From Escherichia coli (GTDB lineage Bacteria > Pseudomonadota > Gammaproteobacteria > Enterobacterales > Enterobacteriaceae), in the NCBI RefSeq assembly GCF_041886205.1, contig NZ_CP169029.1: DNA of 64,000 nucleotides, one strand, 5' to 3'. Shown piece after piece: positions 2,892 through 45,171 of this stretch (position 1 is the stretch's first letter; every line of letters begins with the position of its first letter). The notes below the pieces were generated by a model. It was given only the letters and a program-made list of their open reading frames with translations, did no database searches and was not told the DNA's origin. The position numbers were made by a program, and so were the translations under genes.

Positions 2892-5054
2892 TTACACCGA
2901 CTCCAGCCGGGCGTAAGCTGCCACCAGCCATTTGATTCCCTGGCCCTGGAATGCCACCTGCAAACGGCTATGTTCGCCGCTGCCTTCCATATTGACGATA
3001 GTGCCTTCACCAAACTTAGCGTGGCGTACGCGCTGGCCGAGCTTGTAGCCGCTGTCGTTCTCGACCATCGGCGTACCCATCCGCTGATGGCTAACCGGGC
3101 GGCTTACCGTGGCGCGCAGGCGCACCTCTTCCACACACTCTTCCGGCAGCTCGCCAATAAAGCGCGACGGGCGATGGTAAACTTCTTTGCCATACAGACG
3201 GCGAGTTTCCGCGTAGGTCAGCGTCAGTTTCTGCATCGCGCGGGTTACACCAACGTAGGCCAGACGGCGTTCTTCTTCCAGACGCCCGCCTTCATCCAGC
3301 GACATCTGGCTTGGGAACATGCCCTCTTCCATACCAACGATAAACACCTGAGGAAACTCCAGACCTTTCGCCGAGTGTAGCGTCATCAACTGCACCGCAT
3401 CCTGCCAGGTATCCGCCTGCCCTTCACCTGCTTCCAGTGCCGCATGGGAGAGGAACGCCTGCAGCGGCATTAAATCTTCGTCTTCTTCGTTGTAGCTGAA
3501 CTGGCGCGTTGCCGTCACCAGTTCCTCTAAGTTTTCGATACGCGTCTGACCTTTTTCGCCCTTCTCCTGCTCGTACATGGTGCGCAGGCCGGAGTCTTTA
3601 ATTACCCGGTCAGTCTGTACATGCAGCGGCATATCGGCAGTTTCTTGCGCTAAGGCGTCGATTAATTCCATAAATCGCTGCAAGGCGCTGGCAGCTCGCC
3701 CGGCGAGCGCTTTTTCCTGCAACAGCTCACGACATGCCTGCCAGAGTGTTAACTGGCGATCGCGCGATGTCTGACGTACCACGTCCAGCGTCCGGTCACC
3801 AATACCCCGCGTTGGCGTATTCACCACACGCTCAAAGGCCGCGTCGTCGTTGCGGTTGGCAATCAGGCGCAGATACGAGAGCGCATCTTTGATTTCCTGG
3901 CGTTCGAAGAATCGCATCCCGCCGTAAATACGGTACGGCATACTGGCCTGCAATAACGCCTCTTCCAGTACACGCGACTGGGCGTTGCTGCGGTAGAGAA
4001 TGGCGCACTCGGCAAGCGCCCCGCCGTTGTCCTGCCAGGTTTTGATGCGGTTAACCACAAAACGCGCTTCATCGAGTTCGTTAAAAGCGCAATAGAGGGA
4101 AATAGGCTCACCGTCCGCGCCATCGGTCCACAGTTTTTTACCCAGACGCCCGTTATTGTTTTCAATCAGGGCGTTAGCGGCGCTCAGAATATTGCTGGTA
4201 GAGCGGTAGTTTTGCTCCAGACGAATAGTTTCGGCACCGGGGAAATCATTAAGGAAACGCTGAATATTCTCCACCTGCGCCCCGCGCCAGCCGTAGATTG
4301 ACTGGTCGTCATCACCGACGATCATCACTTTGCCGGTGTCGCCCGCCAGCAGGCGGATCCACGCGTACTGAATGTTGTTGGTATCCTGGAATTCGTCCAC
4401 CAGGATGTTGGTAAAACGTTCGCGGTAGTGTTGCAGGATATGCGGCTTGTTAAGCCACAGTTCGTGGGCGCGCAGCAGCAGCTCGGCGAAGTCCACCAGG
4501 CCCGCGCGGTCACACGCTTCCTGATACGCCTGATACACCTTCTGCCAGGTCTGCTCCACCGGATTACCGTAGCTTTGAATATGATGCGGACGCAGGCCTT
4601 CATCTTTCTGGCTGTTGATGTACCACATTGCCTGGCGCGGCGGCCACTGCTTCTCGTCGAGGTTCATGGCTTTGATCAGACGCTTAAGCAGGCGTAGCTG
4701 GTCTTCACTGTCGAGGATCTGGAAATCCTGCGGCAGATTGGCGTCCATATGGTGCGCACGCAGCAAACGATGCGCCAGCCCGTGGAAGGTGCCGACCCAC
4801 ATGCCGCCCTGGCTGGTGCCCATCAGTTGCCCGATACGATGACGCATTTCCGCCGCCGCTTTGTTGGTAAACGTCACCGCCATAATCGAGTATGGCGAGC
4901 AGTTTTCCACGCTCATCAGCCAGGCGATACGATGCACCAGTACGCGCGTCTTACCACTGCCCGCGCCCGCCAGCACCAGAAGGTTGCTGCGTGGCGCGGC
5001 CACCGCTTCGCGCTGTTTGTCGTTAAGGCTGTCGAGCAGGTAAGAAACGTCCAT
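2892..5054 (-). CDS. uvrD: DNA helicase II UvrD
   Basis: Translation begins MDVSYLLDSLNDKQREAV with Walker A AGAGSGKT; 720 aa after trimming the ORF-track N-terminal extension. Confidence 0.95.
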   Translation of the reverse strand: MDVSYLLDSLNDKQREAVAAPRSNLLVLAGAGSGKTRVLVHRIAWLMSVENCSPYSIMAVTFTNKAAAEMRHRIGQLMGTSQGGMWVGTFHGLAHRLLRAHHMDANLPQDFQILDSEDQLRLLKRLIKAMNLDEKQWPPRQAMWYINSQKDEGLRPHHIQSYGNPVEQTWQKVYQAYQEACDRAGLVDFAELLLRAHELWLNKPHILQHYRERFTNILVDEFQDTNNIQYAWIRLLAGDTGKVMIVGDDDQSIYGWRGAQVENIQRFLNDFPGAETIRLEQNYRSTSNILSAANALIENNNGRLGKKLWTDGADGEPISLYCAFNELDEARFVVNRIKTWQDNGGALAECAILYRSNAQSRVLEEALLQASMPYRIYGGMRFFERQEIKDALSYLRLIANRNDDAAFERVVNTPTRGIGDRTLDVVRQTSRDRQLTLWQACRELLQEKALAGRAASALQRFMELIDALAQETADMPLHVQTDRVIKDSGLRTMYEQEKGEKGQTRIENLEELVTATRQFSYNEEDEDLMPLQAFLSHAALEAGEGQADTWQDAVQLMTLHSAKGLEFPQVFIVGMEEGMFPSQMSLDEGGRLEEERRLAYVGVTRAMQKLTLTYAETRRLYGKEVYHRPSRFIGELPEECVEEVRLRATVSRPVSHQRMGTPMVENDSGYKLGQRVRHAKFGEGTIVNMEGSGEHSRLQVAFQGQGIKWLVAAYARLESV

Positions 5055-5112
5055 TGGCACCGCCGCGTAAAAATAGGTTGGGCGGAGAAGCGCAACGCCC
5101 TCCGCCAAAAAG

Positions 5113-5128
5113 CTGGGTATATATACAG
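5113..5128 (-). promoter_or_regulatory. LexA (SOS) box CTGTATATATACCCAG upstream of uvrD
   Basis: CTG-N10-CAG palindrome about 60 bp upstream of the uvrD start codon. Confidence 0.8.
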
Positions 5129-5137
5129 ATTTGCTGA

Positions 5138-5854
5138 TTATATCAGCGAGGTCAGAGATGCCAACCGGGAAATTTCCAGATGCGGCAGTAAACGGCTGTC
5201 CCAGGTTTGCATCAGATCGCCATTTTCCGGTCTGATCCAACAAGCCTGCATTCCGCTGCGAATTGCCCCACCCACGTCAGTGGTGAGATCGTCCCCAACA
5301 TGTAAGATCTCGCCGATCGGCACGTTGAGTTTTTCCGCAGCCAGAAAGTACATATCGCTGAACGGTTTTGAGCGCCCGTGCGGGCCAGCGCGCAGCACAA
5401 ACTCAAAATAATCCCCCAAACCAAACAGTTCCGGCTGGGCGTTACCGTTGGTGATCGCCACCAGCGGCCATTTCTTCGCCAGCTGTTTTAAGGTGTCGTG
5501 AGTTTGCTGCGGGACGTCGATTCGGCTGCGCCATTTGGCAAAGTTAATCATTGCTGCGTGTGCGCCTGCACTGGCTTCTTCGGCACTCAGCCCGGCGTCG
5601 AGCATCGCTTGTTCAATCGATCGAAAACGCCAGCGCGTCACATCGTGATAAATCTCGGGTTCCGCTTCCCGTACCGCCTGGCGCAGGCGTTGCAGATCTT
5701 CATTCCGGAAGCTGCGCAGCGCCGGATGATAATTTTGCACAAAGGTAAGCGCCTCTCGCTCGGTGCGCAAAATCACCGGACGGTTATCGTAAAGGGTATC
5801 ATCCAGGTCAAAGGTGAGCGCCGAGATGCGCCCCAAAGGCCGGTAAAAACGCAT
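5138..5854 (-). CDS. yigB: HAD-family phosphatase YigB
   Basis: ORF 238 aa with HAD motif [11 protein letters not shown] near N-terminus. Confidence 0.9.
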
Positions 5855-8703: not shown

Positions 8704-10182
8704 ATGCACTATCGCAATGTGGTTTGTTTGTTGTCTTGTTCGTTGTTTTTATCGTCGGCATGGGGATGTCGGCTTGATGAGCCGGAACATAATATTTACC
8801 AGAAACAGGGAAAAGGCGTGGTGTACCTGCGCCCTTATAAAGAAACAAATCTTTCTCTACCTGACGTGAATTACAAGAGTTTGCGTCGTTTACCTAATTT
8901 ATTAATAGACGCAACAACACAAGATGAATGGAATAAAGAACCACCTCTGACTGATCTAACAACTGACAACCTCTATGAGGGCGCACAAGCCTGGTATCCC
9001 CATTACTCCTGGCATAGCGATGGTCGCTATATCCTCTACGCGGGTGAAGTAGTGCAAAATCCTCACGACGCACCACCCGTCGATATCGCCTCATTCAAGG
9101 CATGGGGAGATTTTGCCGCAGATAAACACAGTCTCTATTTTGAAGGCAAGCGCACCGATAACAATGGCGGGGGAAATCGCTTAGATATCAAAACACTGCA
9201 TCAGGTGGAATTCCGGCCTCCCTGGGATCCTGACTTACTGGGGCTGATATTACGTGACGCTAATTTCTTGTATATCAATGGGCATCGCCTCGCAGATCCC
9301 GATAGTTTCCGTGTGCTGGCACAAAAGTCATGGGATCAACGAGGAAAGTTTTCTACCGCGTTTAATCCCTGTGTGGCTATGCCATTTGGCCCATGGGATA
9401 CCCTGGCTCGTACACGGACCAAAATCCTGATCAACGGCGAACAGCTTGATGCCGACCCGGACACTTTTTCCGTCGTGCGCTGGATGCCCGGCTCACTCTT
9501 GACCTGGCGTGATAAAAACGGGCTGCAGCGTAAAGTCCTCGACAAGGAAAATCTGGCGTGGGATGAGGATTTAACAAAGCACTGTCTGGATTTTTCTCTG
9601 CTGGAAAAGAAAGTGTTCTGGCGTCGGGGGCCTGACTGTAAACAGGAAGAATTACCGGGACTCGATCCGGAACAGTTTCACCCCATCAGTGATGCTGTCG
9701 CACAGTATCAGGACTCGCTTTATACCATCATCGAAACAGAGTCTGGTGACCGCAAGCTGGAGATCGTGAAACTTGATGATCCTAATCTTATTATCAACAA
9801 ACGTTTCAACGCCGGGAAACGCCACGGCTATTTACTTACGCGTGCCGAAGGGTGGCCAAACCATTCCGGTTTACACGTGTTTGAATCTGATGGACCGCTG
9901 ATCTTACTGGATAACCGCTCTCCGGATGAACGCGAAGCCCATCTTAATGACCATCCCTTTTTGCGCAGATGGTATGCCCGCGATAACCGCTACGTTTACA
10001 GCTTTGATGGCGCGCAGCTCTGGCGATACCGCACCGCGGATCCGAAACAAGTTCGCTTAATCTGGAAGGAACAACATTCGGGATATGGCTATGGCGTAAA
10101 TTACAAAACGGGATATCTGGACGGAAAAATTACCGATGACGGCGAATTTATTCCTGCCCCGCGCAATGAGGCGACAAAATGA
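8704..10182 (+). CDS. Exported DKNYY-like repeat protein (paralog A), function unknown; start could be 8674 (GTG) or 8704 (ATG)
   Basis: ORF track 502 aa; N-terminal signal/lipoprotein-like segment (…LFLSSAWGC); repeated blocks such as VDIASFKAWGDFAADKHSLYF, RLADPDSF, DADPDTFSVV, ARDNRYVYSFDG; collinear similarity to the downstream ORF. Confidence 0.7.
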   Translation: MHYRNVVCLLSCSLFLSSAWGCRLDEPEHNIYQKQGKGVVYLRPYKETNLSLPDVNYKSLRRLPNLLIDATTQDEWNKEPPLTDLTTDNLYEGAQAWYPHYSWHSDGRYILYAGEVVQNPHDAPPVDIASFKAWGDFAADKHSLYFEGKRTDNNGGGNRLDIKTLHQVEFRPPWDPDLLGLILRDANFLYINGHRLADPDSFRVLAQKSWDQRGKFSTAFNPCVAMPFGPWDTLARTRTKILINGEQLDADPDTFSVVRWMPGSLLTWRDKNGLQRKVLDKENLAWDEDLTKHCLDFSLLEKKVFWRRGPDCKQEELPGLDPEQFHPISDAVAQYQDSLYTIIETESGDRKLEIVKLDDPNLIINKRFNAGKRHGYLLTRAEGWPNHSGLHVFESDGPLILLDNRSPDEREAHLNDHPFLRRWYARDNRYVYSFDGAQLWRYRTADPKQVRLIWKEQHSGYGYGVNYKTGYLDGKITDDGEFIPAPRNEATK

Positions 10183-11501
10183 ATGGTCAAATAATCACTG
10201 TTGCACTCATCCTGTTGGGGCACATATTTCTGACGCCTGCTGTACAGGCCATAGGGTTCGACTATTACAATGATCACGGTGTTATGTCTTACGGTAAAGG
10301 TTATGGGGAGGATGAGAAAATCATTGCCCAATTTCCGAAGATGAACAGAGCCGATTTGCGCCTTGTGACAAATATATCCGGGGAGCGGGAGTTGGTGGAA
10401 GGCTATATACCCACCGATGAAATAAGCATAAAAAATGAGGAATACCACTGGGTGACAGACGGCCGCGTTATTCTCTGGCGTGGCAAAATCGTTAGCAATC
10501 CACCGGGAACACCCACTGTCGATATTGCCAGCTTTCAGGCTATGGGCCGCTTCGCGGTCGATAAATATAGCCTCTATTTTGACGGACAGCGCACCGAAAG
10601 TAATAGCGGCGCGTCACGTGTTGATCTGGCGACACTAAAAGCTATCGAAGGTAACTCTACCACGCTGGTGGATAGTAAAAATCTCTATTTGTCCGGTCGA
10701 CGTCAGGGGAGCAGCAGTAATGTTACTGTATTAGAAAAAAGATGGTGGGGTATTAATCCACGTCTTATGAGTGTAAACAGAAATTTGTATTCCAATGATC
10801 TGCTTATCCGCAGTGGGCAGAATATTTATTTAAATGGCGTTCACCTTACGGCGAATGCAGACTCATTTGAGATAATTCGCTGGAGACCTCATTCACTGCT
10901 GGTTTTTCGCGACAATAAGGGTCTGCATCGTTATCCCTTTGGTCAATTATCAGGCAAGGCAATACCCGTAGATGATGACGTCTCTTTTGAAGTAGGGGAA
11001 AGTCGCGTTCGCTGGCGTAAACAGCTCACGTCCGACCGTCAGTGGAGCAAGTGGATAGACCTACCAGGTATTGAACCTGAACAATTCCATCTGATTACTG
11101 GCAATATTGCGCAGTATAAAGATCGTCTGTATGTAACAAAATTATCGACTTTTGGTGAAGACCAGCTTGAAATAATTCTGCTGGATTCGCCAGACCTGGT
11201 CATTGATAACTCATTTAATGGCGGCAAACAACATGTTTACTTTATCCGCCAATTACGGTCAAAGAGCGTGCAAATTATTCCAACTAACGGCCCGCTAATT
11301 AAAAACGATCGCTTCGCTTATGACGATCGCAATGTTTATACATGGACCGATACAGAGGTAAGGATTACGCCCTCCCCCTGCCCGGCGAAAACACACGTCA
11401 GAGAAGAGAATGTGCGTGAACTTCACAACAGAGACATTATTATTCCGTTGACGGATGAATCATGCCAGAACGCAGCAGACGAGCAAACTTTGAAGCCCTG
11501 A
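10179..11501 (+). CDS. Exported DKNYY-like repeat protein (paralog B), function unknown
   Basis: ORF track 440 aa; signal peptide MNGQIITVALILLGHIFLTPAVQA; start ATG overlaps upstream stop (ATGA); blocks VDIASFQAMGRFAVDKYSLYF, TANADSFEIIRW, DDRNVYTWTD paralogous to the upstream ORF; AT-rich. Confidence 0.7.
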   Translation: MNGQIITVALILLGHIFLTPAVQAIGFDYYNDHGVMSYGKGYGEDEKIIAQFPKMNRADLRLVTNISGERELVEGYIPTDEISIKNEEYHWVTDGRVILWRGKIVSNPPGTPTVDIASFQAMGRFAVDKYSLYFDGQRTESNSGASRVDLATLKAIEGNSTTLVDSKNLYLSGRRQGSSSNVTVLEKRWWGINPRLMSVNRNLYSNDLLIRSGQNIYLNGVHLTANADSFEIIRWRPHSLLVFRDNKGLHRYPFGQLSGKAIPVDDDVSFEVGESRVRWRKQLTSDRQWSKWIDLPGIEPEQFHLITGNIAQYKDRLYVTKLSTFGEDQLEIILLDSPDLVIDNSFNGGKQHVYFIRQLRSKSVQIIPTNGPLIKNDRFAYDDRNVYTWTDTEVRITPSPCPAKTHVREENVRELHNRDIIIPLTDESCQNAADEQTLKP

Positions 11502-17743: not shown

Positions 17744-18940
17744 ATGCTAAAAGTGTTATTGCTCTTTGTGTTGCTGATTGCGGGGATCGTGGTTGGCCCG
17801 ATGATTGCCGGTCATCAGGGTTATGTGCTGATCCAGACCGACAACTACAATATCGAAACCAGCGTCACGGGCCTCGCGATTATTTTGATTCTGGCGATGG
17901 TAGTACTGTTTGCCATTGAGTGGCTACTGCGGCGGATCTTCCGCACTGGCGCGCACACCCGTGGGTGGTTTGTCGGGCGTAAGCGTCGCCGTGCACGTAA
18001 GCAGACCGAACAGGCGCTGCTGAAACTGGCGGAAGGCGATTATCAGCAAGTTGAAAAGCTGATGGCGAAAAATGCCGATCACGCGGAACAACCGGTGGTG
18101 AACTATCTACTGGCTGCCGAAGCCGCGCAACAACGTGGTGATGAAGCACGCGCCAACCAACATCTGGAACGCGCAGCGGAGCTGGCCGGCAATGACACCA
18201 TTCCGGTAGAAATCACCCGTGTACGTCTGCAACTGGCCCGTAATGAAAACCATGCTGCACGCCACGGCGTGGATAAGCTGCTGGAAGTTACGCCACGCCA
18301 TCCGGAAGTATTACGTCTGGCAGAACAGGCGTATATCCGCACAGGTGCATGGAGTTCGCTGCTGGATATTATCCCATCAATGGCGAAAGCCCATGTTGGT
18401 GATGAAGAACATCGTGCAATGCTGGAACAACAGGCATGGATTGGCCTGATGGATCAGGCGCGTGCCGATAACGGTAGCGAAGGTTTGCGTAACTGGTGGA
18501 AAAACCAAAGCCGGAAAACGCGTCATCAGGTAGCGTTGCAGGTGGCAATGGCGGAACATCTTATTGAATGTGACGATCATGATACTGCCCAGCAAATTAT
18601 CATCGACGGCCTGAAACGCCAGTATGACGATCGTCTGCTGCTGCCGATTCCGCGTCTGAAAACCAATAACCCGGAACAGCTGGAAAAAGTGCTGCGCCAA
18701 CAGATCAAAAACGTCGGCGATCGCCCGCTGTTGTGGAGCACACTGGGTCAGTCGCTGATGAAGCACGGCGAATGGCAGGAAGCATCGCTCGCCTTCCGTG
18801 CAGCGCTGAAACAACGTCCGGACGCCTACGATTACGCATGGCTTGCCGACGCGCTGGACAGACTGCACAAGCCGGAAGAAGCCGCAGCGATGCGTCGCGA
18901 CGGTTTGATGTTAACGTTGCAGAATAACCCGCCACAGTAG
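17744..18940 (+). CDS. hemY: HemY, TPR-containing inner membrane protein
   Basis: 398 aa; two N-terminal TM segments; follows hemX with a 2-nt gap. Confidence 0.9.
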   Translation: MLKVLLLFVLLIAGIVVGPMIAGHQGYVLIQTDNYNIETSVTGLAIILILAMVVLFAIEWLLRRIFRTGAHTRGWFVGRKRRRARKQTEQALLKLAEGDYQQVEKLMAKNADHAEQPVVNYLLAAEAAQQRGDEARANQHLERAAELAGNDTIPVEITRVRLQLARNENHAARHGVDKLLEVTPRHPEVLRLAEQAYIRTGAWSSLLDIIPSMAKAHVGDEEHRAMLEQQAWIGLMDQARADNGSEGLRNWWKNQSRKTRHQVALQVAMAEHLIECDDHDTAQQIIIDGLKRQYDDRLLLPIPRLKTNNPEQLEKVLRQQIKNVGDRPLLWSTLGQSLMKHGEWQEASLAFRAALKQRPDAYDYAWLADALDRLHKPEEAAAMRRDGLMLTLQNNPPQ

Positions 18941-44954: not shown

Positions 44955-45171
44955 AGGTGTATTGCTCAATCTTCGAACGGGGGGAGGATTGTAGCAGAAT
45001 CGCATTTGAATGTGACCGCGTGTAAGCCGCTAACCGGTTGGCTGCGGATGTTTAAATCAGAGAGAGAAGACCGAAATCGGAGTTCATCGTGAATCCATTA
45101 GACTTAGAAAATATCGGGTCGTAACGTTGTGTTATTACTTTTTCAGAGTTTACTAAGGAGAGGTTTACTCG

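Follow-up and report, generated by a model that had tools for sequence, protein, structure and literature searches.

The window, the whole 64 kb stretch of Escherichia coli DNA analysed here, is 99.9% identical over its full length to E. coli strain LHM10-1, whose RefSeq annotation gives the local gene order as corA, ysgD, yigE, uvrD, yigB, xerC, yigA, dapF and lptM. On the minus strand the uvrD coding sequence opens with an ATG at position 5054, its translation beginning with MDVSYLLDSLNDKQREAV, the N-terminus of UvrD, and the upstream gene yigB closes with the stop codon TAA at 5140-5138. In the spacer between these two genes the plus strand at 5113-5128, read directly from the window, is CTGGGTATATATACAG, and the minus strand from 5128 to 5113 therefore reads CTGTATATATACCCAG. 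The features of the locus are as follows.

2892 to 5054, minus strand: uvrD, the gene under regulation, encoding DNA helicase II (720 aa), from its translation and the RefSeq annotation of the 99.9% identical strain
5055 to 5066, minus strand: conserved GCGGCGGTGCCA directly before the ATG, a likely ribosome-binding region
5081 to 5106, minus strand: leader hairpin GGCGGAGGGCG-UUG-CGCUUCUCCGCC, GC-rich, about 10 pairs, folding at approximately -20.7 kcal/mol
5113 to 5128, minus strand: LexA (SOS) box, the 16-mer CTGTATATATACCCAG, from its sequence, the published uvrD box, matrix score and conservation
5130 to 5111, minus strand: 20-bp LexA site ATCTGTATATATACCCAGCT, which contains the 16-mer box
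5130 to 5132, minus strand: predicted transcription start at A residues that follow the -10 element by 5-7 nt, from promoter geometry
5137 to 5145, minus strand: extended -10 element TGaTATAAT (hexamer 5142-5137), from the promoter scan, geometry and conservation
5159 to 5164, minus strand: TTGGCA, the -35 hexamer for uvrD, within the yigB coding sequence, from the consensus scan and conserved across Enterobacterales
5138 to 5854, minus strand: yigB, the final gene of the upstream dapF-yigA-xerC-yigB cluster, with the uvrD promoter in its 3' end

The core of the box is a palindromic CTG-N10-CAG with an AT-rich (TA)n spacer, and 14 of its 16 positions match CTGTATATATATACAG, the left half-site being a perfect match to the consensus and the right half-site, CTGGGTAT, carrying 2 mismatches. 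The initial annotation had called a canonical CTG-N10-CAG SOS operator at these coordinates on the minus strand, about 60 bp upstream of the uvrD start and about 10 bp downstream of the yigB stop. Both the sequence and the coordinates are exact, and the measured gaps are 58 nt from the box, on the upstream side, to the ATG at 5054, and 9 nt from the yigB TAA to the box, on its downstream side. The assignment of the uvrD start to this ATG is itself correct, by translation as well as by the RefSeq annotation. In the complete E. coli genomes searched, no annotated feature lies under a 30-mer covering the 20-bp site.

Elsewhere in the window, two adjacent hypothetical genes of 492 and 440 aa were identified on the plus strand at 8704-11501, between lptM and cyaY. 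Both gave weak Pfam matches to DKNYY (PF13644) only, and neither matched a defence system in PADLOC. As lptM and cyaY are adjacent in K-12, this interval may be a strain-variable islet. A frameshifted pseudogene of a PemK/MazF-family toxin lies between rep and ppiC at approximately 45165-45613 on the plus strand, as annotated in LHM10-1; as small indels separate that strain from the window, its coordinates are possibly a few bases off.

We scored the site with a 20-position weight matrix built from 17 of the 18 E. coli boxes in PMC3009722 (Table 4), that of uvrD being left out. The uvrD 20-mer scored 18.2 bits, with a heterology index (HI) of 7.8, and was the best match in the window, the next reaching 13.1 bits. 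When each of the 18 known boxes was scored leave-one-out the uvrD box ranked 11th, its score lying among those of boxes accepted by experiment. The exact probability of 18.2 bits is 3.1e-7 per position, which corresponds to 0.04 sites expected per window and approximately 3 per E. coli genome. The bare CTG-N10-CAG core, with 25 occurrences in the window against 14.9 expected, is uninformative, whereas the full 20-mer is informative. Because some 3 sites of this strength are expected per genome, and because the whole window, dinucleotide-shuffled 200 times, attains 18.2 bits somewhere in 3 cases, the score alone is no proof of an operator. Position and conservation supply what the score leaves short.

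The next-best matrix matches in the window lie in the ilvE-ilvD spacer (52153-52172, plus strand, 13.1 bits) and inside hemY (18360-18379, plus strand, 12.8 bits). The CTG-N10-CAG core is incomplete in both, the former being without the CTG and the latter without the CAG, and both were rejected as being at chance level, with 51 of 200 shuffled windows attaining 13.1 bits. A second LexA box overlying the -10 hexamer was also considered, as CTGATATAATCACCAG is found there in Citrobacter, Enterobacter and Edwardsiella, but it scores just 3-8 bits, and the E. coli version, CTGATATAATCAGCAA, was rejected at -13 bits. An Rfam scan of both strands of 4900-5300 gave no match at E <= 1.

A sigma-70 consensus scan of positions 4900-5400 returned one promoter, on the minus strand, with 11 of 12 consensus matches and a spacer of 16 nt, against 0.3 such promoters expected. 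This strong promoter, TTGGCA-16-TGaTATAAT, occupies the final 27 nt of yigB, so placed that the yigB stop codon falls within the -10 hexamer. The 20-bp LexA site starts 6 nt past the -10 hexamer and the CTG of the box 8 nt past it. Given the predicted transcription start at 5132-5130, the box would extend from approximately +2/+4 to +17/+19, well inside the footprint of RNA polymerase. The box adjoins or overlaps the regulated gene's promoter, which is the standard geometry for steric repression, with the transcription start placed here by prediction. The initial annotation had set the box at the junction between the xerC-yigB operon and uvrD, which holds for its position and can now be refined: the last codons of yigB hold the promoter, and the box lies over the predicted transcription start.

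The promoter, in the form TTGGCA-N16/17-TGATATAAT (window positions 5137-5164), is embedded in the conserved C-terminus of YigB (..EISRLASL..). The end of yigB is under a dual coding and promoter constraint, with the -10 element over the yigB stop, and this arrangement is conserved from Escherichia to Photorhabdus.

Within E. coli, an 801-bp query around the box was matched in 5425 of 5426 complete genomes, with 100% identity in 8 of 10 among the matches listed. The 30-mer over the 20-bp site was intact in 5417 of the 5426; in the other 9 no exact match to it reached 28 nt. Identity of at least 99% was seen for a 136-bp control region in 5401 of 5425 genomes, and for the surrounding 801 bp, coding sequence included, in just 1744 of 5425.

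Among the 9 genomes without a match to the 30-mer, we inspected a single one, that of E. coli AMSCJX02 (NZ_CP031105.1), a giant-panda isolate. It carries a 2-bp TA deletion in the (TA)4 spacer of the box, converting the core to CTG-N8-CAG. Such a deletion should break the spacing of the half-sites and abolish LexA control, and it could be either real slippage or an assembly error.

Across species, uvrD loci were collected by searching one genome per species for the UvrD peptide LNDKQREAV, written as a degenerate pattern and irrespective of any box, which yielded 120 loci. A locus was scored as having a box where the 300 nt preceding the uvrD start contained a match of at least 14 bits. Boxes were found before uvrD in 23 of 29 Enterobacterales, 18 of 19 Vibrionales, 8 of 11 Pasteurellales and 13 of 16 Alteromonadales-type genomes, or 62 of the 75 genomes sampled in these four orders, the chance expectation being 0.002 per locus. 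No box of at least 14 bits was identified upstream of uvrD at any of 31 non-gammaproteobacterial loci, nor in any of 95 equal-sized coding-region controls. Within the gammaproteobacteria, the same 300 nt contained a box of this strength in none of 6 Shewanella genomes, and a uvrD box was found in 1 of 6 Marinomonas. When the upstream sequences of Enterobacterales are set in register with the ATG, the -35 hexamer, TGATATAAT and the box are conserved, whereas the leader between box and ATG is not. The distance from box to ATG also differs by lineage, at 9-20 nt in Vibrionales and Pasteurellales, 14-58 nt in Enterobacterales and approximately 130 nt in Pseudoalteromonas.

A UV tiling-array study (PMC3009722, Table 4), which looked for this motif in the 100 nt before UV-induced genes and transcripts, uvrD included, gives the 25-mer AAATCTGTATATATACCCAGCTTTT as the LexA motif of uvrD, and the window carries an identical sequence. 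Another study counts uvrD as a classical SOS gene, with an HI of 8.5, inside the limit of HI <14 used for listing loci, a 2.1-fold induction by AZT and a 1.7-fold dependence on LexA cleavage (PMC11228462, Table 1). Fragments of the uvrD promoter drive SOS-inducible reporters, and the promoter, assayed with a reporter, is classed as "early" in the SOS response, with activity that peaks at a time independent of UV dose (PMC5999292). Salmonella uvrD, with one LexA box, responds to nalidixic acid with a 13.9-fold induction (PMC8072944, Table 1); the heterogeneity of its basal expression is LexA-independent (PMC8072944), and its regulation by lexA is attributed to Pang and Walker (1983), as cited in that paper. 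LexA dependence and damage induction are taken here from the literature.

Compared with the published E. coli uvrD SOS box, the site in the window has the same 25-mer, the same flanking genes and a similarly intermediate HI (7.8 computed, 8.5 published), and we found no difference between the two: the locus is one and the same, seen here in a further E. coli strain. The intermediate-affinity operators of the housekeeping repair genes uvrA/ssb, uvrB and ruvAB are, like that of uvrD, single boxes with HI of approximately 6-9, a modest 2-4-fold induction and genes with roles beyond SOS. The uvrD locus differs from these in having its promoter inside the 3' end of yigB and, after it, a leader hairpin that has been reported as an attenuator. 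The uvrD boxes of Salmonella, Vibrio, Haemophilus and Pseudoalteromonas are likewise of the CTGT-N8-ACAG type and upstream of the uvrD orthologue, although among gammaproteobacteria the distance to the ATG varies, and Shewanella and most Marinomonas (5 of 6) are without the box.

We conclude, with a probability of about 96%, that the 16-mer represents the uvrD promoter's LexA operator in E. coli, at which a LexA dimer would block RNA polymerase. The sequence itself, its matrix score, the promoter geometry and the conservation of the site are the basis of this reading. The reported LexA dependence of uvrD is small, at approximately 2-fold, and counts against it, as does the LexA-independent heterogeneity of basal uvrD expression in Salmonella. 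As the 20-bp site begins 6 nt, and its CTG 8 nt, beyond the -10 hexamer, a bound LexA dimer would cover the transcription start and the first 18 or so transcribed bases, and LexA at the box would be expected to block sterically either the binding of RNA polymerase or the formation of the open complex. Following DNA damage, RecA-stimulated self-cleavage of LexA would free the promoter and allow a modest rise in uvrD transcription. The imperfect right half-site and the non-consensus flanks would confer an intermediate affinity, and one perfect and one imperfect half-site within such flanks therefore suggest leaky repression and early release. An intermediate affinity would account for an induction of only 2-fold or so, and leaky repression would suit a helicase that is needed in the absence of damage too, in mismatch repair and excision repair.

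A second, LexA-independent layer of control may be provided by the GC-rich hairpin in the 58-nt leader, through attenuation, and the same hairpin would halt read-through from the upstream operon. An attenuator at uvrD is named in the title of Easton and Kushner (1983), as cited in PMC7835731 (reference 156). The hairpin at 5106-5081 fits this reported attenuator and is a candidate for it, as well as a candidate terminator of yigB read-through. It is followed by CAACCUAUUUUU, and a U5 run at 5073-5069 begins 7 nt beyond the stem rather than adjacent to it. Judged by computation alone, the hairpin is unconvincing as an intrinsic terminator: with the U-run offset in this way, a consensus terminator scan called no terminator on the minus strand, and the 91-nt leader folds no better than shuffled sequence (z = 0.37). 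Attenuation at this locus therefore rests on the 1983 report and not on computation. The stem is kept despite substitutions in E. albertii, where a G-U pair is formed, and in Citrobacter. The 58-nt leader with this hairpin is confined to Escherichia and Citrobacter within our sample, and other Enterobacterales have unrelated hairpins at the same position, followed by T/C-rich runs. Immediately before the gene, cggcggtgcca-ATG is conserved in Enterobacteriaceae.

It is possible, but we think unlikely, that LexA and the leader hairpin together gate read-through from dapF-yigA-xerC-yigB, besides repressing the uvrD promoter. Were this so, the output of uvrD would combine SOS status with transcription of the upstream operon, and the recurrence of hairpins in Enterobacterales despite the turnover of their sequence would represent selection on the gate.

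Much less probable is that the box serves mainly as a LexA roadblock to this read-through, acting with a hairpin terminator, and not as the site of a repressor of a dedicated promoter. The box lies just past the yigB stop with the hairpin next, which places both in the path of read-through, and the hairpins and T/C-rich runs that recur at this position in other Enterobacterales would fit the same scheme. A near-consensus promoter with an extended -10 element, conserved across Enterobacterales, is however situated immediately upstream of the box; uvrD promoter fragments suffice to drive SOS-inducible reporters (PMC5999292); and the short distance between box and ATG in Vibrionales and Pasteurellales leaves no room for a terminator. 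A roadblock is in any case compatible with the operator as the main explanation. That the box is instead a chance CTG-N10-CAG in an AT-rich, promoter-proximal spacer, with no binding of LexA, would draw on the frequency of the core motif in the window and on the shuffled windows that equal its score, but it is effectively refuted by the conservation of the uvrD box in four gammaproteobacterial orders and in none of the controls, and is further opposed by the identity to the published site, its near-invariance across E. coli genomes and the LexA-dependent expression of uvrD in the literature (PMC11228462), leaving it a negligible probability.

We thus return to the LexA operator of the uvrD promoter. 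The initial observation is confirmed and its interpretation as an SOS operator supported, the 25-mer being that of the published box; the feature is the long-known uvrD SOS operator, for which Easton and Kushner (1983) is said to be the primary footprinting paper, and is nothing new. The uvrD box serves as a positive control, a genuine SOS operator, established by experiment, having been recognised from raw sequence and correctly placed with respect to both flanking genes. The arrangement is a textbook one, and makes DNA helicase II modestly inducible by damage.
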